Positions 1,758 through 17,177 of a stretch of 17,177 nucleotides of DNA are shown here, one piece after another (position 1 is the stretch's first letter; each line of letters begins with the position of its first letter). Location of the stretch: positions 1-17,177 of the IMG/VR virus record IMGVR_UViG_2671181056_000008; one strand, written 5' to 3'. This stretch comes from a virus. Its lineage: Duplodnaviria > Heunggongvirae > Uroviricota > Caudoviricetes. Below the pieces are notes generated by a model that was not told the origin of the DNA, made no database searches, and saw only the letters and a program-made list of their open reading frames with translations. The position numbers and the translations under genes are program-made.

Positions 1758-1843
1758 TACATGAAAGAAGCTCACTCAGTGCAACTGATCGGTACATAGC
1801 ACCAGACAAAGGAACGTTATTTTCTCGAACAAGAAAAGGTAGA

Positions 1844-1877: not shown

Positions 1878-1893
1878 AATGGAGAAGGGATGC

Positions 1894-2457
1894 TTATTGG
1901 CTATGGCTAAAAATCAAATGAGACACTTCATTTGGTTGTAGCTCGTCAAGATCCGGGGCCACAAAACCTTTTCCGAAAGACTTCACAAGTGATTCACCAG
2001 CCGCATCATTGTCACCTATTACGCGAAAGTCATACGGCAGCATTGCCAGTTGACGACGTAATCCTGCTGAGAAAGTCGAACCTAACAGCGCCCACGAATT
2101 TCCGCCCGCGTTGTGCACTGCTGCACTTTTAAAAATCGACTCAGTTATCCATATCGGTCCATCTTTTAAAGGAAGATAGGTTCCCCATAGTAGCTGTCTG
2201 CCGTGCGCTCGTGTGAAATACCGGGCCATCTTCGGATTGCTATGCTGCTTAGGAGCGCCTGGTCTGTATGTCTGATACCCGGCCAACATCCCATCAAACC
2301 TGTATAGAGGGAATGTAACAACTCCTTCGCTTTCATCGATCCACTGTCTATATGGATGCACATCATAGCGGTAGTTACGAGTTAGCAAATGAGCTTCCAG
2401 CTTTCCAAATTTAGTCATAACTTCGCATCCCTCATAACACTTCCCATTTATCACCAT
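1894..2457 (-). CDS. small Toprim-domain protein (DnaG-type motifs)
   Basis: C-terminal half aligns by eye to DnaG Toprim: ITES (catalytic Glu), LGST, VIGDNDAAGE (DxD). Alternative start at 2418 (MTKFGK) avoids the 26-nt overlap with the upstream gene. Confidence 0.6.
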   Translation of the reverse strand: MVINGKCYEGCEVMTKFGKLEAHLLTRNYRYDVHPYRQWIDESEGVVTFPLYRFDGMLAGYQTYRPGAPKQHSNPKMARYFTRAHGRQLLWGTYLPLKDGPIWITESIFKSAAVHNAGGNSWALLGSTFSAGLRRQLAMLPYDFRVIGDNDAAGESLVKSFGKGFVAPDLDELQPNEVSHLIFSHSQ

Positions 2458-3286
2458 ATTTCTCCATAGCTCTTAGCCAATAAACATGGCCACTAGGCAT
2501 AGTGATGTGAGGCTCGCCAAACTCTTCTCCATGTACATCAAAGATGTCCCCAACAGAAAATTGGGGGATTTCTGTTCCGTTTTCACCTATATGTGTAATT
2601 CGTATACGTTTCGGTTGGGATTGTCCACCTTTGAGCGAGTTGTTCACTGCTCTGGCAATTTTCTCCCGCAATTGCTGCGTTCCGTGATACGTAACCGCAA
2701 TATCCCGCAACTCATTCACTAGTTCTCGAATTTGGTGATCTTTAAGCTCATTATTTGGGTGATTGGTAACAACTCTGGTTAATTCCCCATTGTCTTTTGC
2801 TCTTACGTATGCAGCTCTTGTGCATTCGCCCCATGTATTACCGCCTACATTAACTTCGTAGATTAGGCTGGACTTATCTGTCAATTCGGAACAAATACGG
2901 GCCGTGGTCTGGCAACTAGAGCATTCGCAGTTATCGCGGAAACCGTGGTCTACTGGCTTCGGTTTAACATCATCAACTTTTTCTACCCTATTGGAATTTA
3001 AATACTTCGAAGCCTTGCTATGCCAATCGCTGGTTTTAGGATCTTGTCCATCCATCAAACGCCAGGCTTCAGCTATTAACTCATAACTAGTGACTGTAGC
3101 TTCCTGCGCATCACCAATAAGTCGTGTAATCTCTCTTTCAAGCCGACCGCCTAACTCCGTTTTAGTGCAATGTTCTGACCAATCGCCAGTCTCAAGAAGC
3201 GCGAGAATGCTTAAAATATCGTCCAATAGAACGGTAGTATTATCGACTTCCTTCTGAAACTCACCGGCTACTGATTTATGCATCAT
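2432..3286 (-). CDS. hypothetical protein, 284 aa, with CxCxxC cysteine cluster
   Basis: Long ORF; start ATG overlaps the upstream stop (ATGA); no family recognised. Confidence 0.6.
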   Translation of the reverse strand: MMHKSVAGEFQKEVDNTTVLLDDILSILALLETGDWSEHCTKTELGGRLEREITRLIGDAQEATVTSYELIAEAWRLMDGQDPKTSDWHSKASKYLNSNRVEKVDDVKPKPVDHGFRDNCECSSCQTTARICSELTDKSSLIYEVNVGGNTWGECTRAAYVRAKDNGELTRVVTNHPNNELKDHQIRELVNELRDIAVTYHGTQQLREKIARAVNNSLKGGQSQPKRIRITHIGENGTEIPQFSVGDIFDVHGEEFGEPHITMPSGHVYWLRAMEKYGDKWEVL

Positions 3287-3504
3287 TCGTCATCCTCATC
3301 CGAGTCATCCTCATCACAGGATGAGAGTAGTGGGTTAGTCATTCGCCCTACTTGAGTGGCGTAGCAACGCCGACAGAGATTGCGCAGCACACTGTATATT
3401 TCGAACATCTCGGTTCGTTCATCGCCAACATCAAGCTCAGATGCTATAGCGTGGCATTCAGTCGCGAGAGCCGATATTTTCTGAAATAACTCTGCTTTAT
3501 TCAC
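3283..3504 (-). CDS. hypothetical small protein, 73 aa, acidic C-terminus (CDEDDSDEDDE)
   Basis: GTG start at 3504 preceded by AGGAG with 7-nt spacer; overlaps the DUF551-like gene stop. The 93-aa ORF in the track has no ribosome-binding site at its ATG. Confidence 0.35.
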   Translation of the reverse strand: MNKAELFQKISALATECHAIASELDVGDERTEMFEIYSVLRNLCRRCYATQVGRMTNPLLSSCDEDDSDEDDE

Positions 3505-4072
3505 TCTTCGACTCCTGCGGAGGTTCTGGTAGCGGCATCCAGTGAGTTGCTTGCTCAATACCATTACCCGGCTTAATCGTTACATCTCCGCGCCGAAAGG
3601 TGATTCCGGTATAGCGTGCGGAGCATATTAGCGGTTCAACCAGAGAGCTATCGAAATTCACCGAAATAAGCACGTTCTGGCCCTTTTCAGGCATTCGCTC
3701 ACTACAGCTTATCCAACCATCCGGAGTTACCGGATGGGGTCCAGCGAACTCGGGAATGTCAGGACCTTTTCTGATAGCTTTAGCCAGATCCAGCGGGTCA
3801 TCGTAAAGCCAGTCGCCAGTTTGTGGGTGATTTGCTTCTGCAAGCTGCGCAGCCCATTCAAGACCATCTTTTTGACCTTGGAGATAATCAAGCGGCAACT
3901 CTTCATGATTACTTGCAGGTTCTGCACTATCAGCTTCGCGCCGCTTCTGTAGCTCTGCTGCCATCGCTCTCACGACTTCAACTGGTGCCCTTGCAGCAAA
4001 CTCTATGTTGGTGATCAGCTCATTAAGATATTGCTCGCCTGGATACTGTTTCTTATCGGTTATAGTGGTCAT
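3497..4072 (-). CDS. DUF551-like phage protein
   Basis: 191 aa from ATG at 4072 (GGAGAGTGAT upstream); C-terminal segment with THWMPLPEPP resembles the DUF551 signature as recalled. Confidence 0.6.
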   Translation of the reverse strand: MTTITDKKQYPGEQYLNELITNIEFAARAPVEVVRAMAAELQKRREADSAEPASNHEELPLDYLQGQKDGLEWAAQLAEANHPQTGDWLYDDPLDLAKAIRKGPDIPEFAGPHPVTPDGWISCSERMPEKGQNVLISVNFDSSLVEPLICSARYTGITFRRGDVTIKPGNGIEQATHWMPLPEPPQESKSE

Positions 4073-4073
4073 A

Positions 4074-4460
4074 TCACTCTCCTTTTCCCTGAAGCATAGC
4101 AGCGCGGCAGGCATTCCAGCCTCTCACCTCTGCAATAGCGGCAACAGCATCAACCGCGTACATGCTAAGAGGATTAGGCATTGGTTTTTCTTCCGGTACT
4201 ACTGGAACGGGTGGAGCGGCGTAGACCTCAATAATTCCATTATCAATAGGCCATTCTCCATCCTTGAGGTAGTCACTTGTGCCGTCAACTTGCTGTTCTG
4301 CAATGTGGAATGCACCTATTGGTTTTGCTTCCAGCGATGCCAGAGCAATTCGTGCCAGTTCTTCCGCTTCTTCTGCTGGCAGTACAACGTTGCTACCAGG
4401 TCCGTATGTTTCGCGCCACTGTTTGATTGTCAGTAGTCGCTCTTTGGTAATAGTGGTCAT
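4074..4460 (-). CDS. hypothetical protein, 128 aa
   Basis: ATG at 4460 preceded by AAGGAG; C-terminus ends KGE immediately before the next gene's start. Confidence 0.6.
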   Translation of the reverse strand: MTTITKERLLTIKQWRETYGPGSNVVLPAEEAEELARIALASLEAKPIGAFHIAEQQVDGTSDYLKDGEWPIDNGIIEVYAAPPVPVVPEEKPMPNPLSMYAVDAVAAIAEVRGWNACRAAMLQGKGE

Positions 4461-4470
4461 GTGTTACTCC

Positions 4471-4734
4471 TTAACCCGCAGTGCTTTCAACTGATGAGGG
4501 GAACAAAATCCTTTCATCAAATCCGGCATTCATATCATGGACAGCAACACACCAATCCATCGACGAACGATTATCAAGAGCCTCCATGATTTCATCCATG
4601 CGGCGCAGGTCATACAGGTAAATGCTTTTATCGCCAATGGTGTAAAAACCAATTTTTTTCGGTGATGGGCAGCGATCAAGAACGTCCTGTAATTCGTTCA
4701 ACCATGCCCGTTCTTTTTTTGTTAAAGTTGCCAT
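4471..4734 (-). CDS. hypothetical protein, 87 aa
   Basis: ATG at 4734 (MATLTKKERAW) one nt after the upstream stop, preceded by GGAGAGTGAT. Confidence 0.55.
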   Translation of the reverse strand: MATLTKKERAWLNELQDVLDRCPSPKKIGFYTIGDKSIYLYDLRRMDEIMEALDNRSSMDWCVAVHDMNAGFDERILFPSSVESTAG

Positions 4735-4735
4735 A

Positions 4736-5257
4736 TCACTCTCCTTTGATGCGAATGCCTGCTGCAATGCTGTTTATGATGCTGTCAGTGCATGGAGTAG
4801 AAAGCTGGGCATCTCCAGCAATTTTCATGACCTCAACATCCGCATATCGAATACCGAGGTGTATCAGACCGGCTATACCTGACTTAAGTCGAACATTTTC
4901 CATAAACAGATCTTTTTCCCGCTGTTTAGCGGCTTCCAACTCCATCGACAATTTTTCCAACTGCTCTTTATGCTTCTTGTATTCCTGATACGCGTGCCAA
5001 GACTGACCTTTGCGCACACTATCAGTGATATCAGCAACCTGCTCCGGTGTTAGCGTGGTCAGTGGCTGTGCTGGAAAAATCATCACTTTCCCGGCATCCC
5101 AATCAAAACCCGCCTGAATTGACTGAACCTCAACTGATGGTGTTGAACCGATGCGACCAGGCGAATGAACAACGATCGTTACATCCATATCGCGACGATG
5201 GCTGTGGTTGTTGGACAAAATACGATTCACCAACTCAGAAAATTTGGAAAATTTCAT
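4736..5257 (-). CDS. hypothetical protein with Ea22-like C-terminus (AAGIRIKGE)
   Basis: 173 aa from ATG at 5257 (AAGAGGGA upstream, ATGA overlap with the upstream stop); last 9 residues identical to those of the 5579..6109 product. Confidence 0.6.
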
Positions 5258-5577
5258 GCTGATCCCTCTTTCTCTCCCCGGATAATTCTGTTGCACACAT
5301 CCACACACTCGTCGCAGATGAAAACGGCGTCCCCAGCAATTAACTTTTTGACGGCGTACTGGGATTTGTTGCAGAAGCTGCAACAAAGTGTTCGCCTGAC
5401 TGATAAGGATGGAGCGCCAGATGTCAGCCGCTCCATATCGTTCTTGCGACGCAATATCACACGGCTGAACTCAACCAGTTTCTCCGGGGATATCTCCTCC
5501 TCCGTAGCAAGCGCCTCTAATCGTTCGAGTATGTGGAAGGCTTTTTTCTGGGTAATTGCAGAATGCGATGTGGTCAT
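5254..5577 (-). CDS. small protein with C-terminal ClpX-type C4 zinc-binding domain
   Basis: 107 aa; [38 protein letters not shown] closely matches the ClpX N-terminal zinc-binding domain (CSFCGKSQ...RKLIAG...YICDECVDLCNDIIREE) with all four Cys; ATG at 5577 behind GGAGAGTGAG. Confidence 0.75.
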
Positions 5578-5578
5578 C

Positions 5579-6109
5579 TCACTCTCCTTTGATGCGAATG
5601 CCAGCGGCGCGGGAATCATTCCATCGCTTTACTTCTTCACGAATTACGTCAATGCATTCTTTCGAATCCATTAGGTAATCTTCATCAAAAAGACGTTCCT
5701 GTTCGTTTTCTATCGCAACAATGATTGCTTCAACTAACTTTTGTGCCTGAGAATCACTTTCTAACTCTGCTATGCGCTTACTTCCATCCGAGATAACGCC
5801 CTCGTAATACTCACGCTGCTCGTTGAGTTTTGATTTTGCCAACTCCAGTTGTTTTGTTAGTTCCGCAATACGGCAAACATCGTTGATACGCGTTTCCTCT
5901 AATGCGTTGATCTCATCCAGTAGTGCCAGCACGGTTTCTGGTCCGGCCAGAAATTTGAAGGCGTTGAGGGCATCAATATCAACACCGCTATCTTTAAGTT
6001 CCTGTTCACTTAACAAGTCATCATCAGCTGGCAACATTAACAGGCGTTCCATTGCTGGAATTGCACGTTCCGCCACCTCACGCAGTGCCTGGTAATTAAT
6101 TTCGCTCAC
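5579..6109 (-). CDS. Ead/Ea22-like family protein
   Basis: 176 aa; GTG start at 6109 behind GGAGG; MSEIN N-terminus, [27 protein letters not shown] block and AGIRIKGE C-terminus match lambda Ea22-like proteins as recalled (unverified). Confidence 0.65.
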
Positions 6110-6350
6110 TGGCTGCCTCCTGCTTTTCTGCCTTCAACACCATGCGAGAACCATCATCCAGCTCCCACACTATCTCACCACCTTCAGCCATGACCAGTTG
6201 CCACACCAATTGAGCAGCCTCATTGGTAACATCACGACCTGGATCATTGCCAACGCGCATACGTCCACCTTCAACATCGCGCATTTTTGCCAGCATGATA
6301 GTTTTTGATAGCGGTGAAAAACCAAGCTGTAGTCGTGCTGAATTACTCAC
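6096..6350 (-). CDS. hypothetical protein, 84 aa
   Basis: GTG start overlapping the upstream TGA (GTGA), preceded by GGAGG at 6-nt spacing. Confidence 0.5.
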   Translation of the reverse strand: MSNSARLQLGFSPLSKTIMLAKMRDVEGGRMRVGNDPGRDVTNEAAQLVWQLVMAEGGEIVWELDDGSRMVLKAEKQEAASERN

Positions 6351-6889
6351 TGGTTGCCTCCTTTGCGAAGCTGGGCAGCAAAGTCAACTAACCACTCAGT
6401 CATTTCAACCTTCCCTACCAGGTCTGAACCAGGGTGCATACAGCAATCACTCTGCGCCGCTTTGAAATCCTTATACTCATATTCTTGGGCCACCAGATTT
6501 TTTGCAGCTTCTATAGCAGCATCCACCCCCTGCGCACGTACTTCAGCCAGAAAAGCATCGGTGGCTGGAGTCTCCGTTAATTCGCTAACCCAATTATCTC
6601 CGTGTTCCTCGGCACACATCGCATCGAATGCTCGCTCAGATTCTTTCAGGGCTGCATTCTCCGCCGCTAATGCGTCTCTCTGCGCCCGCAACTTCTCAAT
6701 TTCGGCAGCCATGTAGTAACCAACCATAGCGAAGACGGCAAAAGAGTTGTCTGCCTCATCAGGCGACACTGAGGCCATTAGCAGACCATCGTAATAATCG
6801 TGACTCCCATTGGTGATCGCCACCTCATAGGAGTCGTGGTTCTCACGCTTGTGAATGAGAACTACGGGGTTTTCGATTTTGTTACTCAT
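6347..6889 (-). CDS. hypothetical protein, 180 aa
   Basis: ATG at 6889 preceded by AAGAGAAAAACAC, a leader shared with three other genes; first gene after the 6964-6997 element. Confidence 0.6.
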   Translation of the reverse strand: MSNKIENPVVLIHKRENHDSYEVAITNGSHDYYDGLLMASVSPDEADNSFAVFAMVGYYMAAEIEKLRAQRDALAAENAALKESERAFDAMCAEEHGDNWVSELTETPATDAFLAEVRAQGVDAAIEAAKNLVAQEYEYKDFKAAQSDCCMHPGSDLVGKVEMTEWLVDFAAQLRKGGNQ

Positions 6890-6963
6890 GTGTTTTTCTC
6901 TTCTTTGCTGTTACATAAGCACTACCAAGTGCTGGTTTATTTTCACAAATAAGAAAATGTAGA

Positions 6964-6997
6964 AAACAATTTATTTAAGGCCACAACTTATGGCCTT
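6964..6997. repeat. composite element copy 2: degenerate palindrome AAACAATTTATTT plus GC hairpin
   Basis: Hairpin aaggcca (6977-6983) / tggcctt (6991-6997), 7-nt loop; about 85 percent identical to 1841-1880 over roughly 45 bp. Confidence 0.6.
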
Positions 6998-7027
6998 TAT
7001 TTATTCATGCCGAAGGATTTGTAGCGT

Positions 7028-7408
7028 CTAATTGCCGTATAAAATGGGGTGAGGTGCTTGCCAGTAGGCTCCACCGGTCCATGTGAACCCCATGCGAATA
7101 AGAGTGTTTATTGCGGCTTTGGTAGACTCCGATTCGACACTGGCTTTACGAAACTCTTGAACCTCTTTCGCCAACCTGTATGTAATTGTGCAGGGGACGA
7201 TTGCAGCCCAGCCTTTCTCATGACTGTTAATGACCATCTGGATGTGACCATCCAGAATAGGTTGATTAGACATGTTATTGAAAATGTCTGCCTGTTTTTG
7301 AATGTGAAGAAAAAGCCTTGCCAGCTCCATTTGCTCACTACGAGACAAGGGATTATCAAGAGGGCTTTTTGCAAAAGCGGCTATACGCTGTGCGTCAATG
7401 CCAAACAT
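7028..7408 (-). CDS. hypothetical protein, 126 aa
   Basis: ATG overlaps the upstream stop by one nt (TGATG); no family recognised. Confidence 0.55.
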   Translation of the reverse strand: MFGIDAQRIAAFAKSPLDNPLSRSEQMELARLFLHIQKQADIFNNMSNQPILDGHIQMVINSHEKGWAAIVPCTITYRLAKEVQEFRKASVESESTKAAINTLIRMGFTWTGGAYWQAPHPILYGN

Positions 7409-8112
7409 CAGCGCACCTCACCATCTTTATGGCTGGAGTTAACTTCCGCCATTAAATGTCTGACGTAATCGACAAGAGAGCCACCTGGTGGAATCTGGCA
7501 TTCCTCAACTAACTGGAAGTAGATATCCGCAGCATTACGTGTATTGCTACCCGCGCATATTCTTTCTTCCCGAAGTGCATGAAGCTCGTTGATCAAACGG
7601 TCACACTCTCCGTTACGCTGATCCACAACAGCCTCAAGTTCTGCGACGCGTTCACCTGGCGTCTTACCTTCTTCGCGTTGGATGGTAACGACGAAATCGC
7701 CAATTGCAGGGACGTTGTAATCCAGCTCAAGGTAGTTTTTGGCACCGCTGCGGACGAACTCACCCGCGAACATGGTGGCGAACATCTCAGAGGCCATTGT
7801 GCTGTTGAAAAGTGACTCCAGATCTAACGGAGTCCCGGCAGCCAGAGCCTCTTTTGCTGTATCCATTGTATCCATGAACCGATCAAACTCATTAGCGCGC
7901 TTTTCCAGGTCTTTCCATTGCTCGCTCCAACGTTTGGCAATGAAGTCTATGAATGTTTTCGCGGATTCATCAAAATCCCCCTCAAACTTAACGATGCCTT
8001 TATCAATAATGATCTGGCCTACCGCATCCTCTGCATAACCTTTCAATGTAAACTTGAAAGGAAAATCAGAATGGCCTGTGACGTTAAAATGCTCTAACTG
8101 GAGGTTGTTCAT
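7408..8112 (-). CDS. hypothetical protein, 234 aa
   Basis: ATG at 8112 preceded by AAGAGAAAAACAT; no family recognised. Confidence 0.6.
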   Translation of the reverse strand: MNNLQLEHFNVTGHSDFPFKFTLKGYAEDAVGQIIIDKGIVKFEGDFDESAKTFIDFIAKRWSEQWKDLEKRANEFDRFMDTMDTAKEALAAGTPLDLESLFNSTMASEMFATMFAGEFVRSGAKNYLELDYNVPAIGDFVVTIQREEGKTPGERVAELEAVVDQRNGECDRLINELHALREERICAGSNTRNAADIYFQLVEECQIPPGGSLVDYVRHLMAEVNSSHKDGEVR

Positions 8113-8173
8113 ATGTTTTTCTCTTATCGTTTAGTTATTACATTCTTACACAAATTAAGTAAGTATTTACCTA

Positions 8174-9859
8174 TCATTTAACGCGTTTGAAAACGTATAC
8201 GCTGACTGTGATCCCTGTGTCTTCAAACTCGTTGGTAAACGACTTCCCTCTGGCATAAACGTAATTATCCATCGTCATCCAGTCCAGTATTGGCGCAGTG
8301 CCCGGCAATACTGCTACAAGACGCCCGCCGACTTTCAGATGCCCCAGCGCAGCCAGCGTGTGCTCTCTATGACGACCAAGCGAGTACGGCGGGTTCATAA
8401 CGATTTTGTCGAACTGATAACCTGCGTTGTCCTCAGACCACTTTATGAAGTCGCAGCAAATCGTGTTCGTATACCCTTTTCCACGCAGGATATCAGCGAA
8501 GAGAGGTGCGATTTCTATGCAGGTAACATCTTCCAGATCGGCGTTAATATAGGCCAGAAGATCCCCACGTCCGGCTTGAGGCTCCAACAGCTTCTCACCA
8601 GGCTTCAATTCAGTGGCTCTGGCAACGTACTCAGCAATCAAGCGTGGGGTAGGGTAGAACTGGTGTGATTTTGTATCCGGTATTAAACCGGTAGCCACAA
8701 TCGTATTTAGCGTATGGCCGATCTCATACGGGAACTGCCAGTGCTTTTTCTCCTGCACGCCGCCAATGAAGCTCAGTGTGCGCTCAAGCTCTTCCACCTG
8801 CGACTTCTGGAGAGCTGAATCAGAGAAGTACCATACGCCTTTGTCTTTGCTCAATCGCCCGTCACGAAGCGCAGTGCGAACCGGCACGGAGATCGTCTTC
8901 TGGATTAACCCGAACTGCTTTGGTGCCCGTGTTTTTGGCGCAGTTCGGCATGGCGCGGGGATTGCAGCAGGCATACTGTAAGCCAGCACCTCATTCAACT
9001 TCCAGGCCACGTCAGGATGTATTTCAAAGTGAACGTTGCCGTTCTTGAACATCTTCACGCGCATCAGATTTCCATCGACGTTCATCCAGTCACCGGTCTG
9101 GCAGTCGTTTGCCCGATACGCAGCTGATAGCACCTCAGCAGTGCGGTTGATGGTAATAAATTCTTTGTGCGCGAAGAAATGAAGCAAGACACGCAGATCG
9201 TCGATGTAGTCCTCTTTGCGATAGTTCACGCTAACGCTGTCACGCCAGAAATCAGAAATGCAGTCAGCGATTATCAGACGCTCGCTGAAACCGTTTGTCT
9301 TATTTGTCTTGTGCGCAGGACTCAGCGCCTTAAACAAGCCATACACGCGCTCAGAGAGATATTTGTGCCTGTCATTCAGCAAATTAAGCATCGTTGGTAT
9401 GACCGTTTCTGCTTTGAACTCCGGTACACCAACGAACTCTTTAACCTTCATCTGATAGCCGGTTCTGTCAGTTTTGATGACTTCCTGCTTGCCCTCGATA
9501 AATAGCTCACGCCACTCGTCGCGACGGGAAGCTGGCATGATCAGCAGAACGTTAGTCATATCCGTAACCTTCCTCCAGTACTCGGCCCAAATATTCTGTT
9601 TCACCCATTCCAGATCGACGTTATCCAGCCAGACTCGATTCAAACGTGAGCGATCTTCATCTGGTCGGTGGTTTAGTCGAAGCAGGCGATTAATCATGTT
9701 GTGGCGTTCATCGCCATAAACGAAGTCGTGTACCTGATACATGAAGGAGATCTCTTTCTCGCACTCGGCCACAATTTCGTGGATGACGTTCATTTCCTGT
9801 CGATAGTCGATAGCAGTGTTTGAGCTGGCATCGCCCATGATGGAAAGGGCTGTATTCAT
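8174..9859 (-). CDS. two-domain protein with C-terminal N6-adenine DNA methyltransferase domain
   Basis: 561 aa; FYPTP, then SAM-binding EPQAGRGDLL, then NPPY about 70 residues later (gamma-like motif order), only about 55 residues after NPPY; N-terminal 400 aa unassigned. Confidence 0.85.
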   Translation of the reverse strand: MNTALSIMGDASSNTAIDYRQEMNVIHEIVAECEKEISFMYQVHDFVYGDERHNMINRLLRLNHRPDEDRSRLNRVWLDNVDLEWVKQNIWAEYWRKVTDMTNVLLIMPASRRDEWRELFIEGKQEVIKTDRTGYQMKVKEFVGVPEFKAETVIPTMLNLLNDRHKYLSERVYGLFKALSPAHKTNKTNGFSERLIIADCISDFWRDSVSVNYRKEDYIDDLRVLLHFFAHKEFITINRTAEVLSAAYRANDCQTGDWMNVDGNLMRVKMFKNGNVHFEIHPDVAWKLNEVLAYSMPAAIPAPCRTAPKTRAPKQFGLIQKTISVPVRTALRDGRLSKDKGVWYFSDSALQKSQVEELERTLSFIGGVQEKKHWQFPYEIGHTLNTIVATGLIPDTKSHQFYPTPRLIAEYVARATELKPGEKLLEPQAGRGDLLAYINADLEDVTCIEIAPLFADILRGKGYTNTICCDFIKWSEDNAGYQFDKIVMNPPYSLGRHREHTLAALGHLKVGGRLVAVLPGTAPILDWMTMDNYVYARGKSFTNEFEDTGITVSVYVFKRVK

Positions 9860-9962
9860 AATTGCACCATTAAGAAATGATTTGTTTAATGATGCAATTA
9901 TTTCAAAAATAAAAAGGTGCTAAATAGAAATTAACAGGCAATACTTAAAATAAAGGCATTGA

Positions 9963-10864
9963 CTAATCATACTTGGATGTATTTATAACCAGGACTTTAT
10001 TTGTATATAGTTTTTTTACATTCCATGTAACATTACTTGAATACCATTCACCATTATATATTTGGTTTCCCGTTGCGCCTGTCATTGTTACGTATACAGG
10101 TCTGTCGTAAGGTGTTCGTCTATAGTTATATACTCCAACCATTGCAGGCATTATCGCACACGGGTATCCCATATTTATGGTAAATTGAGGATTTGTAATA
10201 GTGATAATCTCTGCATCAAGGGGCATCATCTCACCGTGATATACCATTTTACCTGCGCTATTATACATGGCAATACCATATCCTGAATGTGGTAACACCA
10301 TATCAGAAAAAGCATAAACTGTTATCGTTCCGGGGTTTCCTCCAACCTGATTCAGTCTGAGAACATTATACCCATCTCTAAATTCATGAACGAACATCAT
10401 ATTCGCCTTATTACTGCTTTTTATAAAGAAAAAACATGATTTGTTCGACGGTATTGAAGTCTTAAAAACAGAACCTTTAGACGTGGACATTGTCCCCCTA
10501 TTAATCAAATTTTGCGGTGTAAATTCTGGACTCATCCACACATTACCATTTGACTGAGTAATTGACATCCCGAACATTATTGTTATCCCCAATATGTATA
10601 TATATAAGATCCAAGTCCCTTGTATAAATTTGACCAACTTACTGTATTGCCGTTAATAGTGATAGTTGGTGTAGGTATATTTACATGGTTATCGTTATTT
10701 AAAGGCATCAATGAGCACACAGCATGTAATGATTTGCCAGGTGGTGGATTTGGGTAAGTCTTAGAGCCTGACGTGGTTGTAAATCGATCAAGAAAAAAAA
10801 TAGGAGTAAGGAAGCCGGTAACGTTAACTCCCTTATTATTGTAGATCCCTGTACCGTATGCCAT
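9963..10864 (-). pseudogene. AT-rich gene split into two frames at a (TA)5 tract
   Basis: Frame A (10583..10864, 93 aa) has a good ribosome-binding site; frame B (9963..10637) continues 200+ aa from a TTG. Frames differ by one nt and the (TA)5 tract at 10597-10606 lies in the overlap; removing one TA fuses them. Confidence 0.4.
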
Positions 10865-10890
10865 TTTTCATCCTTGTTTTTATCAACATA

Positions 10891-10914
10891 ATATGGCCGA
10901 TCATGCGGCCATAT
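10891..10914. terminator. inverted repeat ATATGGCCG-N6-CGGCCATAT, candidate terminator
   Basis: 9-bp perfect stem with 6-nt loop, 4 nt after the 10919 stop; followed on the minus strand by a T-rich stretch. Confidence 0.45.
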
Positions 10915-10918
10915 CAGA

Positions 10919-11488
10919 TCAATTAGAGCTTTGAAAGGCTTTGTGTGGCTGTGTTGCGAGGTTATGTCGATGGCTTAACTCACGCATCATGTCTTCAAGG
11001 CGACTCTTTGTGTCGTCGAGTTGGTCAGCCATTGCTCCTAAAAGCTGACGAACTACCATCGGATCGTCGCTGTTTAGTGATGGCATTTTATAACCCGCCT
11101 GAGAAGACATCAGATTGAATGCTGACATCAACATCGTTAGAGAGGATTTAAGCCCGGCAATTTCACGATCTTTGCTGGCAATAATCGTCTCACTTTTGTT
11201 ACTGTCATGAGTTCCTTGAGTCTCGATCACCATATCCAAAGTCTCTTGCAACTTATCAGCTCTCTGTTTTTCAGCAAGATAATGAACACCGAAATGATGT
11301 GCTAAAGCTACAACCTGAGTTGGCTCTTCAAAGGTGGACTCAAAATTAAGTGCTGTAACCACTCTCTCAAAAATGGAAACGTCTTCTATTCCTCGAAGAA
11401 TGGCTAACATTTTGACAAGTTCATTAGCATCCATTTCTTCGAATAGGGCGTTTTGTTCATCAGCTATTGCTTTGCATTTCTCGCACAT
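10919..11488 (-). CDS. hypothetical protein, 189 aa
   Basis: ATG at 11488 preceded by AAGGAAAACAT; leader carries the palindrome at 11507-11519. Confidence 0.6.
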   Translation of the reverse strand: MCEKCKAIADEQNALFEEMDANELVKMLAILRGIEDVSIFERVVTALNFESTFEEPTQVVALAHHFGVHYLAEKQRADKLQETLDMVIETQGTHDSNKSETIIASKDREIAGLKSSLTMLMSAFNLMSSQAGYKMPSLNSDDPMVVRQLLGAMADQLDDTKSRLEDMMRELSHRHNLATQPHKAFQSSN

Positions 11489-11506
11489 ATGTTTTCCTTA
11501 ATGCTT

Positions 11507-11522
11507 AAACAAGTTGTTTTCT
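11507..11522. promoter_or_regulatory. palindrome AAACAAGTTGTTT (operator-like), copy 3
   Basis: Perfect 13-bp palindrome 19 nt upstream of the 11488 start; the 16-mer aaacaagttgttttct is identical to 12236-12251. Confidence 0.5.
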
Positions 11523-11627
11523 TATTGGCTTTATTGTGATGTGGCATAAAAGGGGAGCAAGCTAAACGTAAAGGTGCAAACTCTCTATTTCGGTCAACGA
11601 AACACAATGGCCATTTGACCCTTGTCA

Positions 11628-11786
11628 TTAACACGTTGCTTTACGGACTAGCGGATAAGCGAAGTAGATCGCCAGACCAATGAGGACGCCATCAGAAATG
11701 ACAGACATCATCTTTCCCGTAAAATCCACCAACACCGCCATCACCAGAAGAGCAATGACGGTCACAAGCCGGAATCTCTCAAGCAT
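11628..11786 (-). CDS. small hydrophobic peptide, 52 aa, two predicted TM helices (not in ORF track)
   Basis: ATG at 11786 overlaps the TerB-like stop (TAATG); hand translation gives MLERFRLVTVIALLVMAVLVDFTGKMMSVISDGVLIGLAIYFAYPLVRKATC, stop at 11628-11630. Confidence 0.4.
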   Translation of the reverse strand: MLERFRLVTVIALLVMAVLVDFTGKMMSVISDGVLIGLAIYFAYPLVRKATC

Positions 11787-12211
11787 TAGAGATAAGCATC
11801 CAGTGACAACTGAAGCGCCTGGGCGATCTTTTTCAGCGCCTGCTCTTCTGGTTCATCAATGCCGTCTTGGTCGGCAATATCAAGGCACAGACAAAGTACA
11901 TCTACTGCATCATCAGTCCCGGCCACATCCGCCAGCTCACGTAAAGCCTGGGCATTAGCACGGCGCGGTGAGGCTTCGTATTGAGCGCGGATATTGGCGC
12001 TCATCTGGGCTATCTCACCAGCAAAAGGAGAAAATGCAGGCAGAGCTGCAATTGTTTTCTCAAGAATGGAAATTTCTTTTGCATCGCATGTACCGTTGGC
12101 ATAGGAGATCATGTACCCACCCCACACGGTGGCTTCAACCGCATCACGGTTCTCCATTTTTTTGACTTCGATAACTGCTTTACGAGTTTTCTTTTTGAAG
12201 AAACCTAACAT
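11786..12211 (-). CDS. TerB-like domain protein
   Basis: 141 aa; MLGFFKKK N-terminus and C-terminal DIADQDGIDEPEEQALKKIAQALQL resemble tellurite-resistance TerB as recalled; ATG behind AAGGAAAACAC. Confidence 0.6.
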   Translation of the reverse strand: MLGFFKKKTRKAVIEVKKMENRDAVEATVWGGYMISYANGTCDAKEISILEKTIAALPAFSPFAGEIAQMSANIRAQYEASPRRANAQALRELADVAGTDDAVDVLCLCLDIADQDGIDEPEEQALKKIAQALQLSLDAYL

Positions 12212-12235
12212 GTGTTTTCCTTTTGTTATTGGTCA

Positions 12236-12251
12236 AAACAAGTTGTTTTCT
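12236..12251. promoter_or_regulatory. palindrome AAACAAGTTGTTT (operator-like), copy 4
   Basis: Perfect 13-bp palindrome 25 nt upstream of the TerB-like start; same 16-mer as copy 3. Confidence 0.5.
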
Positions 12252-12304
12252 AGTTAAATAAATTGCTTACGCAAAGACGGTCAATGCATATGCACTAACA
12301 ACCG

Positions 12305-12493
12305 TCAGAAATAACCAAGTACCGAACCGACTGGAAAAATAAAAATCCCAACTACACGAGCCAAGGTCATGCCAGCCTGAAACTGGAGATCGCCAGAGCA
12401 AACAAGTTTTATAATGTTCGATACCCAACCGGCGGCCATGAGGGCAAGAATTGCCAGCCAAATTTTTCCAAAGTGATTTGAAAACCAGTTCAT
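12305..12493 (-). CDS. small membrane protein, 62 aa, two predicted TM helices
   Basis: Two hydrophobic segments (IWLAILALMAAGWV, VVGIFIFPVGSVLGYF); ATG overlaps the stop of the 12490..12741 frame (ATGA) and lies 9 nt after the 12503 stop. Confidence 0.5.
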   Translation of the reverse strand: MNWFSNHFGKIWLAILALMAAGWVSNIIKLVCSGDLQFQAGMTLARVVGIFIFPVGSVLGYF

Positions 12494-12502
12494 ACAACCG
12501 CC

Positions 12503-12997
12503 TTAGTCACAGCATGATCCTGAGTAACTGGATGAACTTGAGGTATCGCATCCACCGTCATCCCATCCAGAGTGACAGGTCGCTCTACTGGAGTGGTGGT
12601 AATTGTCGTCGACGGAGGTGTGGTGATGGATGAATCCGGCATCAAAAGGCTCTGACCGGCTGGAACGGCTACCGTCGCCAGTGAAACTATAATGAGAACG
12701 TAGGCCATTGGTTTCAGCCTCTTTCTTTGAAAATTTTCCATTCGAACTGTCCTTGTTGTTTTTCTCCTTCACTAAAGGCCGTGCATTTTTCGCTTCGCGT
12801 GAAGAACCAGAGGCAACAATCGCCCACACGTTCGCAACAACTGACGCTTGATTATCTAAACGTTCATTCAGCAACCGAACGGTAGTCTCTAGTTCATCAA
12901 GGCGTGACATAACACGACCGCTAAATAATTCGGCCAAAATTTGACGTAAAGAACGAGGACGTTTAGTTACAGAAGTGAAATAGGTTTGACGTGCCAT
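12503..12997 (-). CDS. hypothetical protein, 165 aa, with a second signal-peptide ORF nested out of frame
   Basis: ATG at 12997 behind GGAG; N-terminal 60 aa protein-like, C-terminal half Ser-rich low complexity and overlapped by 12490..12741 (signal-peptide-like MAYVLIIVSLATVAVPAGQSLL). Which frame is expressed is unresolved. Confidence 0.45.
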   Translation of the reverse strand: MARQTYFTSVTKRPRSLRQILAELFSGRVMSRLDELETTVRLLNERLDNQASVVANVWAIVASGSSREAKNARPLVKEKNNKDSSNGKFSKKEAETNGLRSHYSFTGDGSRSSRSEPFDAGFIHHHTSVDDNYHHSSRATCHSGWDDGGCDTSSSSSYSGSCCD

Positions 12998-13026
12998 GTG
13001 GACTCCATCCAGTGTCATAAAGAGTT

Positions 13027-13048
13027 GCGGCTGGCAATCGCCAGCCGC
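13027..13048. terminator. GC-rich hairpin, candidate terminator or attenuator
   Basis: 9-bp stem gcggctggc / gccagccgc with 4-nt loop, immediately upstream of the 12503..12997 gene; U-tract weak on the minus strand, better (CTTTCTCGTT) on the plus strand. Confidence 0.4.
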
Positions 13049-13142
13049 CTTTCTCGTTCCATCCTGGAACTGTGTCTTACCGACACATTGTCATCCTGAC
13101 GCCGATAAGATACATGATTTATAATGATAGGTAAACACTTAC

Positions 13143-13736
13143 TTACTGTTTGTTATAAACAAAACCAATATCTTTCTTGTGAGGCATATCTGCTGCTGAA
13201 AAAGCTGCGATCTTCGCGAGTCGATCACATATTTCATTTTCACGATGCCCGGCGTGACCTTTAACCCACTTCCAGCGAACATTATGTCGACTTGCGGCCT
13301 CATCCAGACGCTTCCACAGATCAACATTCTTTACCGGTTTTTTGTCAGAAGTCATCCATCCATTGCGTTTCCACCATTTCATCCACTGTGTCATGCCGTT
13401 TTTCAGATACTGGCTATCAGAGTGCAAAATAACGTTGCATGGATATTTCAAACGCTCCAGCCCGATAAGTGCCCCCATCATCTCCATGCGGTTATTGGTG
13501 GTGCTATGAAAACCATCTGAGAACTCGCGTTCCTCGCCACGATACTGGAGAACGATACCGTAACCGCCCGGGCCACCCGGATTTTTAAGGCAAGAGCCAT
13601 CACTAAAGATTTTCACGGTTTTAAGCTGGGGATTGAACTCTACGACAGGCGTTGTGGGATTGGTGCGGGGAGAATTTTTGTTTTTGTCTTTTTTGCGAGT
13701 TTTTGCTTGCGGTCGGGCTGGTGTCTTCGTTGTCAT
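13143..13736 (-). CDS. rnhA: ribonuclease HI homologue with basic N-terminal extension
   Basis: 197 aa from ATG at 13736 (AGGAG upstream); core [17 protein letters not shown]...TNNRMEMMG...HSDSQY...[11 protein letters not shown] aligns closely to E. coli RnhA; about 40-residue Lys/Arg/Pro-rich N-terminal extension. Confidence 0.9.
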
Positions 13737-14317
13737 ATAAACTCCTGAATCAAGCGCCGCGCCGATTTTTCCTCGCGCGTGCGCACACGCGTGCGTGTTA
13801 ATAATTATTAAAATAAACAAATTACTTCCCAGAACAGGTTTTTATAAACCTGAACTGAACGAACGAAGTGAGTGAAGTTCACCTCGAACGAAGTGAGAGG
13901 TTGTCTTTTCAGGTAATACTCTCCCAGGGAGGTGAGTATAAAATTCCTCACCAACCTGGTCGTTTCATAACCTGAAAAGCTATGGTCTAAGTCTACTGCC
14001 AGCTTAGACTTGGGAAGTTATGGATGACAGCACCCCAGAACCGAGATCTTCCCACACTTTATGAAGGGGAGTACTGGATTCAACCTCTCGAAACACCCCA
14101 GACTCGACAATCATAAAGTGACCCTTGTCTCCGCTCACTTTGGTTCCCCCTTCCCCGACACCTAAACGGCACCGGTTCTACGCTGGTAGTGAGCTTTTTT
14201 AAACCTGACGCCAGTGACGCTTACCCCCACCCATCAGGTCGAGTCTCCAGTCTACGACTGGAAACTATCAGATCTTAGCACTTACAATTCATCTTATGAA
14301 TAGTTTGTACTTATCTA
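13737..14317. other. 580-bp ORF-free structured region (candidate ncRNA, origin or regulatory hub)
   Basis: No ORF of 60 aa or more; 25-nt alternating purine-pyrimidine tract (13774-13798), 14-bp AT palindrome (13798-13811), 13-bp direct repeat (13860-13872, 13885-13897), several hairpins, repeated CACCCCAGA, two AGATCT sites. Confidence 0.4.
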
Positions 14318-14548
14318 TCATTTCGATTGATTATTTTCTCGACCATGTAGTTGAACATTCAAGGCAAACACCTCGTTGATCAACTCACCTAAAAGCTGTT
14401 CAACAAGTTCGCGATGCTCCCCAAGATGCAAGCACTTAATTGCCCACTCGTACAAGTTGAAAGCCTGCTCACGATCTTTCATCATTTCACGAGCCTGGGC
14501 CAGAAAATCGCTGTCTACGAGCGCAACGACATTAGTCGGGTATGACAT
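14318..14548 (-). CDS. hypothetical protein, 76 aa
   Basis: ATG at 14548 (MSYPTN) preceded by AAGGAA; the upstream ATG at 14572 has no ribosome-binding site. Confidence 0.5.
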   Translation of the reverse strand: MSYPTNVVALVDSDFLAQAREMMKDREQAFNLYEWAIKCLHLGEHRELVEQLLGELINEVFALNVQLHGRENNQSK

Positions 14549-14652
14549 GTTGGTTTCCTTAAAGTGGTTCATAAAATCGATTTTAAAGCGTCTGGGAAGG
14601 GGGTCTAGTGGATTCTGTAGTGATGTTCAGGTCTGGAGTCTCTGATACAAAA

Positions 14653-14714
14653 CAGCCTGCTTCCGTATATTAATAATTAATATGTAGTTATTTATATATA
14701 TACAGAAGCAGGCT
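14653..14714. terminator. long inverted repeat with AT-rich palindromic loop, candidate terminator plus promoter
   Basis: 10-bp stem agcctgcttc (14653-14662) / gaagcaggct (14705-14714); loop holds a 17-bp palindrome ATATTAAT-A-ATTAATAT and a (TA)5 tract; followed on the minus strand by GTTTTGTATC. Confidence 0.45.
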
Positions 14715-14735
14715 AATTACAGACGCCAGAACAAA

Positions 14736-15329
14736 CTAAGCAGCCTTCTTTGATGGTCTTTTTTTCCTGATCACATTCGCAGGATCATACCCTCCCAGAC
14801 TTTTCATGACGTCCAAAGGGATCTTGCTTATAGAGTGCCCAGCGTCCTGACAGAATCCTCGAAAAACAACGAGCATACTGCCACCGGGGTTGATGTTTAC
14901 TTCTACCTGACCCAAATTGACGTCAGGCTCGACAAACGCTACGCGGCCACCAGACAGAATAATCGTCTCATTCGCATACTCTGTTGCACGCTCATACCAC
15001 TTTGTATCGAGGGATTGAGGAATTAGCATCACTGTAGTAACTCCGCGAGCCTGCTCACGTATAGCAGCATCAATCCAGGGGGAGATTTTGGAGTAGGGTG
15101 GATTGAGGAAGGCAATTGTACCTGGCTGTCCCCATTCAGATTTCAAAGCATCACGCTCAATGCCTATGAAATTAGGCAGCTTTGCGTTGTCCTTGTTGCA
15201 GGCAACGTCAACATCAAATGTCACTCCAAGATAACGTTGAATGGCAGAAAACAGCCAATCAGGTGTTCTCCAGAGGTCACGAAGAGAGTTGTCGCGCTTT
15301 CGCTGTTTGATTTTTTCGGCTGCAATCAT
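14736..15329 (-). CDS. phage-type DNA N6-adenine methyltransferase (Dam family)
   Basis: 197 aa; WRTPDWLF near the N-terminus and NPPYS catalytic motif, typical of the small phage Dam family. Confidence 0.85.
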   Translation of the reverse strand: MIAAEKIKQRKRDNSLRDLWRTPDWLFSAIQRYLGVTFDVDVACNKDNAKLPNFIGIERDALKSEWGQPGTIAFLNPPYSKISPWIDAAIREQARGVTTVMLIPQSLDTKWYERATEYANETIILSGGRVAFVEPDVNLGQVEVNINPGGSMLVVFRGFCQDAGHSISKIPLDVMKSLGGYDPANVIRKKRPSKKAA

Positions 15330-15396
15330 CTTCTTTCTCGATAGGTAAGTAAATACCTATTTTTGCATTTGATTTTATGTATGGCAATCAAATAAA

Positions 15397-15471
15397 ACGC
15401 GCCAGAAATGCGAACAAGAAGCTCTCTGGCGCGTTTTTTTGGTGCTGGGTATGGGTTATCTTACCCAGCAC
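15397..15471. terminator. tandem hairpins: bidirectional terminator candidate plus a second GC hairpin
   Basis: Stem acgcgccag (15397-15405) / ctggcgcgt (15426-15434) followed by T7 on the plus strand and by TTTTATTTGATT on the minus strand; second hairpin gtgctgggta (15442-15451) / tacccagcac (15462-15471). Confidence 0.5.
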
Positions 15472-15511
15472 TATAAAGCTCTCTATGGGCTTTATTTTCA
15501 GTAGGGGAACG

Positions 15512-16321
15512 TCATCCAATAGTGTACTCCGCGACAAACTTCTTAACGATCGGTGATTCTTCGTTCAATGTTAGATTTCCACCGTCTCTAACGGCAATTC
15601 CTGTAGCTGGAAATACAGCCATCATTTGCCCAGCCTGAGTTGACGCAGTGTTAAGCGGATACGGTTTTTCTGGATTGCTCATTAAAGCAATCTTAATACT
15701 ATTACTTGTAGCCTTCTTTTCTGTAAGAAGGTGTCTCATGGAAATTACCGTGTAAACACTAATATCTGGACCTCCGCTAAACCAATTAAGAAGGTTTAAT
15801 ATCTTATCCTTCGCTTTGACAGGCGCGTTTTCGTAAGCGTCTAAGAAAATATCTTTTTCTAAGCCTGCTTTATTGAAAAACGAATCATCTTTATCACTTA
15901 AAGTAAAACTAGGACCTCTTGCAGCACGAGTTTTTTTATTTGTATTGCTATCATTTGACTGTTGAACTTTTAATTCATCATTAACCTCAACACAATCTTC
16001 AACCTCAATGATCCCCAACTGTTCTGGCTCATTTTCGGCAGCTTCACCACTTTCAGCGTTAATTACGTTTATAGGCTCATGCGCTAACTCCAACTCATTT
16101 AAAGCAGAGCTGAAATCACCTGCTTTTTCTTCATTGAACAGTTCTTCGGCAACATCATCAGAACTCATGGCTACGCCAGCATCGAGGCCGAGAAGCAGAT
16201 CGTCAATATCATCAGTATTTTCAACCTGTGCAGCTTTTTTTACTGGTTCATCAAGTGATTGCAACATGGCTGTCAGCTCATCCAGATCATCATTTGTCAT
16301 TACATTTTCAACCGAACTCAT
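15512..16321 (-). CDS. hypothetical protein, 269 aa, strongly acidic N-terminal half
   Basis: ATG at 16321 behind GGAG; first 125 residues carry about 38 Asp/Glu against 3 Lys; C-terminal half is neutral to basic. Confidence 0.6.
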   Translation of the reverse strand: MSSVENVMTNDDLDELTAMLQSLDEPVKKAAQVENTDDIDDLLLGLDAGVAMSSDDVAEELFNEEKAGDFSSALNELELAHEPINVINAESGEAAENEPEQLGIIEVEDCVEVNDELKVQQSNDSNTNKKTRAARGPSFTLSDKDDSFFNKAGLEKDIFLDAYENAPVKAKDKILNLLNWFSGGPDISVYTVISMRHLLTEKKATSNSIKIALMSNPEKPYPLNTASTQAGQMMAVFPATGIAVRDGGNLTLNEESPIVKKFVAEYTIG

Positions 16322-16442
16322 GTAAGTCTCCTTCTGTTTAGTTGCATTTGCGTTTCGATGGCTACATTTTGACTAAACCTATCAGGCGGAAAAGTATTAA
16401 ATACAGGCAGGAAATGATTGAAAGGCGACTGTTCTTTAAAAG

Positions 16443-16480
16443 AAAGCCTGCTTCAAACTCTCTTTAAAGCAGGCTTTTGT
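16443..16480. terminator. rho-independent terminator after the exonuclease gene
   Basis: About 13-bp stem (agcctgcttcaaa / tttaaagcaggct, one mismatch) with 5-nt loop, T-rich on both sides; begins 2 nt after the 16482 stop. Confidence 0.6.
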
Positions 16481-16481
16481 T

Positions 16482-17039
16482 TTACACAATTTCAGAGGGT
16501 AATTTAAAAAATCCGTATTTATTACGTGCCTTAAAGAAGCATTGCATCATTAAGTTTGTGTCATATAAGGCACTATGTGCTTTGGCATGATCGTATATAA
16601 AGCCAAGAGAGAAGGCCAATTCTTCAAGGCGAGGACGTTTACCGTCTTCTGTGGCCCACAATCCCGATAACATAGTATCTATAACGGGAACGTCTGGCAG
16701 TCTTACTCCATACCCTGAAAACTCGTGTCTAATAAATGGTATATCAAACGCTTCGCCGTTATGAGCAACCCACGCACTACATGCCTCCATATAAGCGCCA
16801 ATTTCGCTAGCATGATTTGACAACAAAGGTTCAGCTGCGAGCTGTTCTAATGAAATGCCATGAACGGCTTGAGCTTTCGGATCTATGTTTCTGCGAGGGT
16901 TAAAACGCATCTCCAGACTATCAATATGTCTCTGTGTCTCCAGTTCATAGCGGGTAATTGCGATTTCAATAATTTTATGACCAGCAAGGAAATCCAGTCC
17001 CGTAGACTCGATATCGATGCCTGCAACAATCGTTGTCAT
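16482..17039 (-). CDS. DnaQ-like 3'-5' exonuclease (DEDDh family)
   Basis: 185 aa; Exo I GIDIESTGLD, Exo II HNGEAFDIPF, Exo III HSALYD; ATG at 17039 behind AAGGAG. Confidence 0.85.
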   Translation of the reverse strand: MTTIVAGIDIESTGLDFLAGHKIIEIAITRYELETQRHIDSLEMRFNPRRNIDPKAQAVHGISLEQLAAEPLLSNHASEIGAYMEACSAWVAHNGEAFDIPFIRHEFSGYGVRLPDVPVIDTMLSGLWATEDGKRPRLEELAFSLGFIYDHAKAHSALYDTNLMMQCFFKARNKYGFFKLPSEIV

Positions 17040-17177
17040 CAGAACTCCTTACAACTTCTTAGCGCCCTTAAGTAGTGCGCTACGTACAAATTGAGCCGCT
17101 TTTTTCAAAGTTTCTTCACTGGTTTCACAGACAATCTGAAGTGGTCAACAAAAACTGGCCACCGAGTTAGAGTTTTT

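Follow-up and report, generated by a model that had tools for sequence, protein, structure and literature searches.

A tciA-tciB-like pair of overlapping genes, encoding a TerB-family protein and a small hydrophobic DUF3927 protein, in an SSU5-type phage-plasmid

The stretch of Caudoviricetes DNA analysed here (17,177 nucleotides (nt); positions 1 to 17,177 of the IMG/VR record IMGVR_UViG_2671181056_000008, hereafter the window) carries a gene for a TerB-family protein of 141 amino acids (aa) that is directly followed, and overlapped, by a gene for a 52-aa hydrophobic protein of the DUF3927 family. Sequence comparison identifies the locus as the tciA-tciB pair, known first from phage P1, in its SSU5-type phage-plasmid version, and the two genes are therefore called tciA and tciB throughout. 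The 2-kb region around them is 100% identical to the 109-kb record Escherichia phage CMS-2020a and 95-99% identical to phages PhiR41_1 and Cyrano, the latter being the plasmid-prophage pLF82 of Escherichia coli LF82, and all three are SSU5-type phage-plasmids. The two genes lie on the minus strand, as do the neighbouring genes for a 62-aa and a 189-aa protein. The original prediction for this locus, made from the letters of the window, had described tciB as an unannotated open reading frame (ORF) and had considered a membrane-acting exclusion or toxin-like module. In fact, tciB is not new, since it was named in P1, is catalogued as DUF3927 and PHROG 1470, and is annotated in the public records of near-identical relatives: the pair appears as 'P1 TciA-like protein' and 'P1 TciB-like protein' in Cyrano and as 'tellurite resistance TerB family protein' and 'DUF3927 family protein' in RefSeq E. 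coli genomes.

The two genes share a single base, as had been proposed: tciA ends in ...CTC TAA TG, and the A at 11786 both closes its stop codon and opens the tciB ATG. A tblastn search with TciB retrieved P1, P7 and D6 (37-42% identity), Klebsiella phage-plasmids (64%), lambdoid coliphages, Klebsiella phages and an Actinobacillus phage, and a TerB gene lay directly upstream of tciB in every annotated case; the homologues of the pair in P1, P7 and D6 (34-42% identity) have the same arrangement. The conservation of the coupled small ORF beside TerB genes, which the original prediction had offered as a check, was found from both directions. When one genome of each species was scanned with a TciA profile, 11 complete loci emerged, from Enterobacterales and a few other genera, and in all 11 a TciB-like ORF overlapped the tciA stop by 1 or 4 nt. 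Conversely, scanning viral contigs with a TciB profile gave 80 loci, one of them cut by the contig end, and in all 79 testable loci a TerB gene stood immediately upstream and overlapped tciB by 1 or 4 nt. The junction was TAATG in 47 of these loci, GTGA in 26, TGATG in five and ATGA in one; such variation of the junction sequence with retention of the overlap is the pattern predicted by selection for translational coupling. The tciA-tciB pairing is thus obligate, it is found in at least four temperate-phage lineages, and a match to the region is present in 535 of 5426 complete E. coli genomes (about 10%).

Synonymous divergence between the window and most of its relatives is saturated, and the tciB ORF, its length and its motif are nevertheless retained. 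Among close pairs in which the synonymous divergence (dS) is unsaturated (0.24-0.65), the ratio of non-synonymous to synonymous divergence (dN/dS) is 0.03-0.15 for tciB and 0.01-0.06 for tciA. Because of this synonymous-biased conservation, the absence of which had been named beforehand as grounds for refutation, tciB is judged a real gene under purifying selection.

The upstream gene is TerB-like, in line with the original prediction. TciA matches the Pfam TerB family PF05099 over residues 33-136 (E = 1e-5; 26.2 bits against a curated cut-off of 24.4) and the PHROG 632 family 'tellurite resistance' (2.8e-61), and a profile of TciA and its relatives matches the solved Klebsiella TerB structure 2JXU over residues 16-135 (E = 2.7e-6). 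The AlphaFold2 model of TciA has six helices in a TerB-like fold (predicted local distance difference test score (pLDDT) 88; predicted template modelling score (pTM) 0.84), with the first 20 residues disordered. The only confident neighbours retrieved with this model by Foldseek were chains of 2h5n (probability 0.99-1.0; template modelling (TM) score 0.50-0.60), a protein of the TerB-like superfamily. The disordered N-terminus, MLGFFKKKTRKA, is basic-hydrophobic and conserved as MxGxFKKKxRKA, resembling the start of the 2JXU TerB, and it is a candidate membrane- or partner-binding segment. TerB proteins have two acidic 'DG...E' motifs that are thought to bind metal, the second of which is present in TciA as D116-G117...E122. 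No significant match to a DNA-binding or antitoxin domain was found in TciA, its helix-turn-helix (HTH) hits all being sub-threshold. A separate observation concerns a type I-E spacer of a clustered regularly interspaced short palindromic repeats (CRISPR) array in the chromosome of bovine E. coli EC42405: this spacer, CCCAGGCTTTACGTGAGCTGGCGGATGTGGCC, is identical to a piece of tciA (window positions 11921-11952, minus strand), and ATG, which is a canonical type I-E protospacer-adjacent motif, stands before the matching protospacer of the window.

The product of tciB, MLERFRLVTVIALLVMAVLVDFTGKMMSVISDGVLIGLAIYFAYPLVRKATC, matches the Pfam family DUF3927 (PF13064) over residues 4-51 of its 52 (1.9e-12; 47.4 bits against a cut-off of 25) and PHROG 1470, 'TciB-like inhibition of cell division or resistance to colicin' (7.8e-21). 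At 50% identity the family is small, with 158 representatives in a set of 1.84 billion proteins and lengths of 45-70 aa in nearly every case, and the residues R6, D21-F22-T23, S28, D32-G33 and P45 are invariant across relatives. Searches of the pair against NCBIfam gave no informative match. Two hydrophobic stretches, at residues 7-20 and 26-47, are separated by DFTGK. On the Hessa scale the first is strongly hydrophobic, yet it has only about 14 residues between flanking charges, and the second is marginal and includes the invariant Asp32. The predicted two-helix peptide holds as regards the two hydrophobic stretches. The AlphaFold2 model gives one continuous helix over residues 2-51 (pLDDT 91.5); a hairpin of two helices, its basic ends both facing the cytoplasm, would be a plausible topology. 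Directly after the tciB stop lies a terminator-like hairpin, which is imperfect in the window (one mismatch and one G-T pair) and perfect in Cyrano, where it reads ACAAGGGCC-aaat-GGCCCTTGT. The exact pairing was not part of the window's minimum-energy fold, and the hairpin was not listed by a terminator scan; as a weak indication, it would make tciA-tciB a two-gene unit.

The expression data and the genomic position of the pair point to an accessory function used in lytic development. In transcriptomes of strain LF82, the Cyrano genes CYRAN_85 and CYRAN_86, which encode TciA and TciB, have about 5-7 normalised units against a floor of 4.99, the lowest value in the part of the S1 table considered, while the values given there for the putative Cyrano repressor are about 96 units and those for the toxin-antitoxin genes (KacT, RelE, HicA) 9-60x above background (PMC9928086). 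The pair stands just upstream of lysis genes (holin genes, endolysin or both) at nine loci from lambdoid and Actinobacillus phages, and it follows the gene for the Q antiterminator wherever that gene falls in the locus sequence examined; from this lysis-proximal position, the pair would belong to the late transcript. In P7 the pair lies within the C1-controlled ban operon, and the gene order around ban in P1 is identical. Additionally, a Pantoea P1-like element has two C1-operator-like sites 57-98 nt upstream of tciA, with one and two mismatches, respectively (0.01 expected). When tciA, tciB and tciC of P1 were knocked down by CRISPR interference, all three were scored non-essential and plating was not reduced (PMC10695390). 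Taken together, silence in the prophage, a late or C1-controlled position and dispensability weigh against an addiction or exclusion module expressed in the lysogen. As a further feature of this region, six loci of lambdoid or Actinobacillus-type phages (L004, L005, L009, L011, L013 and L014) have a conserved structured element, agagcctttcaggGGTGAGCC...GGCTCACCc, in the 100 nt upstream of tciA, which may be a late-operon terminator or a leader downstream of the Q-dependent promoter.

Altogether, we consider it fairly probable that both genes are real and that their products form a two-protein, membrane-associated unit made at a fixed ratio and expressed in the lytic cycle. By sequence, tciA would encode a soluble TerB-fold protein and tciB a hydrophobic inner-membrane protein of about 50 residues. 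The constant stop/start overlap makes it probable that both are synthesised from one mRNA by termination-reinitiation. We infer that TciB is the membrane partner or anchor of TciA, so that the two would constitute a small unit at the cytoplasmic membrane, analogous to TerB with TerC in ter operons and to the TerB-plus-transmembrane proteins of some defence systems. TerB proteins have been reported to be membrane-associated or amphitropic, the Bunzi and Dionysus systems combine them with transmembrane proteins, and a role in membrane surveillance has been proposed. The pair would be switched on during lytic development and off in the resting prophage, and it may adjust or protect the membrane of the infected cell while being dispensable for plaque formation. 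We would give no specific physiological role of tciAB more than a low probability.

Several observations weigh against such a unit. The first TerB motif of TciA in the window has Asn at the nearly invariant D39 (ANG...E46; codon at 12095-12097), and the PhiR41_1 allele also has Asn at this position, where at least 90% of aligned relatives have Asp ('ADG...E'). TciA is far more conserved than TciB, with 82% against 44% identity for the Actinobacillus phage, and one TciA type occurs with very different TciB types; as a consequence, any interface between the two would have to rest on the few invariant residues. No convincing natural TerB-DUF3927 fusion was found in a Rosetta-stone search. Besides, the expression data come from one 95%-identical relative under a limited set of conditions. 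The matches set aside in the fusion search were a 196-aa protein from a single contig (P0205) and a few matches of 119-176 aa, which look frameshifted or chimeric.

The exchange of TciA and TciB types can be followed in the P1-like E. coli plasmid pCombat11I9-3 (locus L028, 2488-3190), where a tciA of the lambdoid/SSU5 type, with 77% nucleotide identity to the window, stands in place of the P1 type, joined to a tciB of the P1 type and to a 35-aa ORF that resembles tciC and lacks annotation. This arrangement reads as an allele replacement at a fixed position, and such shuffling agrees with the report of tciABC as a highly variable region among P1-like plasmids (PMC9603915). Allele replacement may also explain reports that half of the P1-like plasmids have 'lost' tciABC.

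Among known systems, the closest is tciABC of P1, also present in P7 and D6, the gene names of which rest on homology only. There, too, a TerB gene is followed by an overlapping DUF3927 gene (TAATG) on a plasmid-prophage, and the products differ little in length (144 and 54 aa in P1, 141 and 52 aa in the window). However, the P1 proteins have only 34% (TciA) and 37% (TciB) identity to those of the window, and in P1 tciB is followed by tciC, which encodes a 35-aa single-helix peptide, whereas no such ORF is present at 11489-11627 of the window; a tblastn search with TciC matched the P1 locus only, and a TciC-like ORF could also be read in the DNA of a P1-like plasmid. Moreover, the window has no match to the C1 operator (ATTGCTCTAATAAATTT, up to 3 mismatches), the pair having its own palindromic leader, and its neighbours are RNase H, small membrane proteins and a DUF4942 methylase instead of the tRNAs and ban found in P1. 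In ter operons (terZABCDE), terC follows terB, and TerB acts with the membrane protein TerC. TciA shares full-length homology and the same all-helical fold with the TerB of these operons (2JXU), and a membrane-protein gene likewise lies directly downstream, but no other Ter-family match (terZ, terA, terC, terD or terE) was found among the genes neighbouring tciAB, and the 52-aa TciB has no detected similarity to the multi-pass TerC of about 340 aa. A combination of TerB and transmembrane components, with proposed membrane surveillance, also characterises the defence systems Shango (SngA), Bunzi (BnzA) and Dionysus (DinB with the membrane proteins DinA and DinC). These systems are host-encoded, have at least three genes and carry helicase/ATPase or pore-forming effectors, whereas tciAB is phage-encoded and consists of two genes with no recognisable effector.

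Other explanations of the pair were weighed against the same evidence. That the 52-codon ORF might be a non-functional by-product of sequence downstream of the TerB gene would suit its short length and the absence of a strong Shine-Dalgarno sequence of its own; this explanation is refuted and retains next to no probability, since the ORF, its length, the invariant motif and the overlap have been kept through saturated synonymous divergence, dN/dS is as low as 0.03, and the family has 158 representatives. The toxin-like or superinfection-exclusion module of the original prediction, in which TciB would damage membranes with TciA as its coupled inhibitor, or the prophage would express a block to phages or colicins, recalls antitoxin-toxin operons in its gene order (a larger acidic protein, then an overlapping small hydrophobic peptide), and terB-containing ter operons have been reported to confer phage inhibition and colicin resistance. 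We nevertheless judge it quite unlikely. The Cyrano transcripts in the portion of the source considered are at background, unlike those of KacT, RelE and HicA; PADLOC, which includes Shango and Bunzi, matched neither TciA nor TciB nor the products of the genes immediately beside them at E <= 0.01; TciA lacks a significant DNA-binding or antitoxin domain match; the homologous genes of P1 are non-essential; and a late, lysis-proximal operon, as in the lambdoid phages, is a poor place for a gene protecting the lysogen. An exclusion function restricted to lytic growth is possible.

The position of the pair just upstream of the lysis genes in nine loci and the holin-like size of TciB, a small membrane protein, would instead suit an antiholin-like accessory of lysis timing, by which TciA and TciB modulate the holin or the triggering membrane potential. 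We regard this role as improbable, since the slot between Q and the holin gene is a general cargo site in lambdoid phages, the pair is not beside lysis genes in the window, in P1, P7 and D6 or at several genome loci, neither protein has a holin-family match in Pfam, and the knock-down in P1 left plating unreduced. A counter-defence role, for which we hold a similarly small expectation, would have the phage TerB and its membrane partner mimic or jam host TerB surveillance (the ter operon, Shango, Bunzi or Dionysus), or stabilise the membrane against pore-forming abortive-infection effectors or colicins. TerB domains recur in validated defence systems, for which a survey of the membrane has been proposed, TciA is a full-length TerB homologue with the TerB N-terminal motif, and the pair appears to be expressed in the lytic cycle; furthermore, the pair has been exchanged between phages of at least four lineages, and P1-like plasmids show replacement of its alleles, a pattern typical of arms-race cargo. 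On the other hand, the very strong conservation of TciA (dN/dS 0.01-0.06) does not resemble the fast evolution common among anti-defence proteins, and at the E-value threshold given above there is no similarity to the TerB-system models of PADLOC.

Table 1. Positions of the tciA-tciB pair, its leader element and associated features in the window
Feature	Position	Strand	Remarks
tciA-like gene, 141-aa TerB-family protein	11786..12211	-	ORF; Pfam PF05099, PHROG 632
tciB-like gene, 52-aa hydrophobic DUF3927 protein	11628..11786	-	PF13064, PHROG 1470
Terminator-like hairpin and GTTTCGTT	11596..11625	-	directly after tciB stop; read from sequence, weak
Leader element AGAAAACAACTTGTTT (palindrome AAACAAnTTGTTT)	12236..12251	-	ends 24 nt upstream of tciA ATG; candidate operator or promoter-proximal site
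Second identical leader copy	11507..11522	-	ends 18 nt upstream of ATG of gene 10919..11488
Palindrome sites	1844-1856, 6964-6976, 11507-11519, 12236-12248		
62-aa hydrophobic protein gene	12305..12493	-	PHROG 6006
189-aa gene	10919..11488	-	function unknown in PHROG 5508; own leader-element copy; lineage-specific neighbour

The leader shared by tciA and the next gene, which the original prediction had noted as identical and palindrome-bearing, is a 16-nt exact repeat containing a 13-nt palindrome with a free central base. It proved to be one instance of a site that recurs across the genome (Table 1). With up to one mismatch, the window has four palindrome sites against 0.12 expected, a number reached in none of 200 shuffles. 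In the 108-kb genome of PhiR41_1 there are nine exact sites, with none in 30 shuffles, and 18 sites with up to one mismatch against 0.57 expected. Thirteen of these 18 are oriented with the downstream gene, as AGAAAACAAnTTGTTTaa, and for the 12 such sites that were measured, the distance from the start of the palindrome to the start codon downstream is 24-78 nt, mostly 24-48 nt. The genes preceded by a site belong to all classes and include nrdB, tciA, the 189-aa gene, several small genes, parA and the apparent first gene of the structural block, the last with two tandem sites. The other five sites have the reverse orientation, and each lies immediately against a GC-rich terminator hairpin. 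The reversed sites of the window fall within a 64-nt intergenic repeat, at 1817-1880 and 6937-7000 (86% identical), that consists of a terminator hairpin AAGGCCAC...GTGGCCTT, the reversed palindrome and an ATTTTC-N8-GAAAAT inverted repeat; read on the opposite strand, the site would be followed at once by the terminator, which could yield a very short transcript.

Cyrano, PhiR41_1, two E. coli plasmids and Klebsiella pJN2-26 all have the leader of tciA in the same place, and the site is kept at orthologous positions in pJN2-26, where the matching stretch (mostly coding) is only 76% identical. The palindrome is absent upstream of tciA in the lambdoid and P1-type phages. A scan for sigma-70 promoters at the threshold of the tool found nothing upstream of tciA or of the next gene, and a looser scan of the PhiR41_1 sites revealed that about half of those oriented with the gene have a hexamer resembling a -10 element 13-14 nt before the palindrome, together with a poor -35. 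These hexamers, which are suggestive only, would centre the palindrome near +14, an operator-like position. Folding of the RNA of both leaders showed no significant structure, with the palindrome in no stable stem, and on this ground a riboswitch or attenuator was rejected; Rfam searches of the leaders also gave no informative match. The palindrome sequence occurred in no paper of the library searched. In viral contigs scanned for the 16-mer, the matches were mostly single and due to chance, and multi-copy matches occurred in contigs of 90-112 kb.

The C1 operators of P1 and the 13-bp palindromic OB sites of KorB in RK2 are global operator networks, and by analogy with them the palindrome may be read as a lineage-wide operator or promoter-proximal site. 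The resemblance, which concerns the leader only, lies in a short conserved site before many scattered operons, including the partition operon. In contrast, the palindrome is unrelated in sequence to the C1 operator, and five of its copies abut terminator hairpins in the opposite orientation. Candidate binders encoded by PhiR41_1 are a 119-aa protein after parA, an HTH repressor, an AraC-type protein and an FljA-like protein, among which Pfam matches did not discriminate. Since the site is genome-wide, the leader indicates that tciAB and the next gene belong to one regulon as cassettes under separate control, and it does not mark them as a functional unit; of the earlier claim on the shared leader, the exact repeat thus stands, while no functional tie between the TerB gene and its neighbour follows from it.

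Among the neighbouring genes, the 62-aa ORF that had also been predicted upstream of tciA is well founded, being kept in the E. coli and Klebsiella relatives and differing from the Klebsiella gene with third-position bias (20/18/43 differences by codon position). It is conserved within SSU5-type phage-plasmids only and elsewhere lies outside the tciAB module. An 83-aa ORF (12490-12741, minus strand; PHROG 15659), the product of which has an N-terminus resembling a signal peptide, ends in a stop codon that shares bases with the start codon of the 62-aa gene (ATGA), and this ORF lies, in another frame, within the 3' half of an annotated 171-aa ORF (12503-13018, minus strand; PHROG 10411). Both frames are open in four E. 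coli relatives and in Klebsiella pJN2-26, and differences by codon position speak for the 83-aa frame within the overlap (23/22/33) and for the 171-aa frame in the part upstream (37/25/50), which may reflect dual coding or a mis-annotated gene boundary. Elsewhere in the window, several adjacent genes on the minus strand have their ribosome-binding sites and opening codons within repeats of 32-70 nt (4058-4134, 4446-4477, 4720-4765 and 5570-5639); the relatives carry Ea22, EaA and related paralogues in this region, and the repeats suggest a tandem family of paralogous genes with conserved starts. The 561-aa DUF4942 protein (8174-9859, minus strand) matches methyltransferase models of PADLOC, including mad2 of the MADS system at 1.1e-15, and is probably an orphan, self-protective DNA methyltransferase of the phage-plasmid. 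Outside the window, the FljA-like protein of PhiR41_1 (piece L023, 37192-37710) is a full-length 'repressor of phase-1 flagellin' (Pfam PF03614, 1.3e-68), through which the phage-plasmid may interfere with host flagellin expression.

Having already been catalogued as tciA/tciB of P1, DUF3927 and PHROG 1470, the pair itself carries little weight as a discovery. Nonetheless, it is of modest interest, being widespread in E. coli genomes and temperate phages, and since TerB has recently appeared in validated anti-phage systems, an obligate unit of TerB and a membrane peptide would offer a simple model for TerB at the membrane. In its boldest form, which we put forward as speculation and think unlikely to hold as a whole, tciAB would be a miniature lytic-phase device of TerB plus a membrane partner, jamming host TerB-type surveillance or shielding the membrane from pore-forming abortive-infection effectors or colicins, and the leader palindrome would mark an undescribed global operator network of the KorB/C1 type in SSU5-type phage-plasmids. 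To our knowledge, gene control in these phage-plasmids is essentially undescribed, and the palindrome to which the leader of tciA led, present throughout the genome, may be their main regulatory signal.

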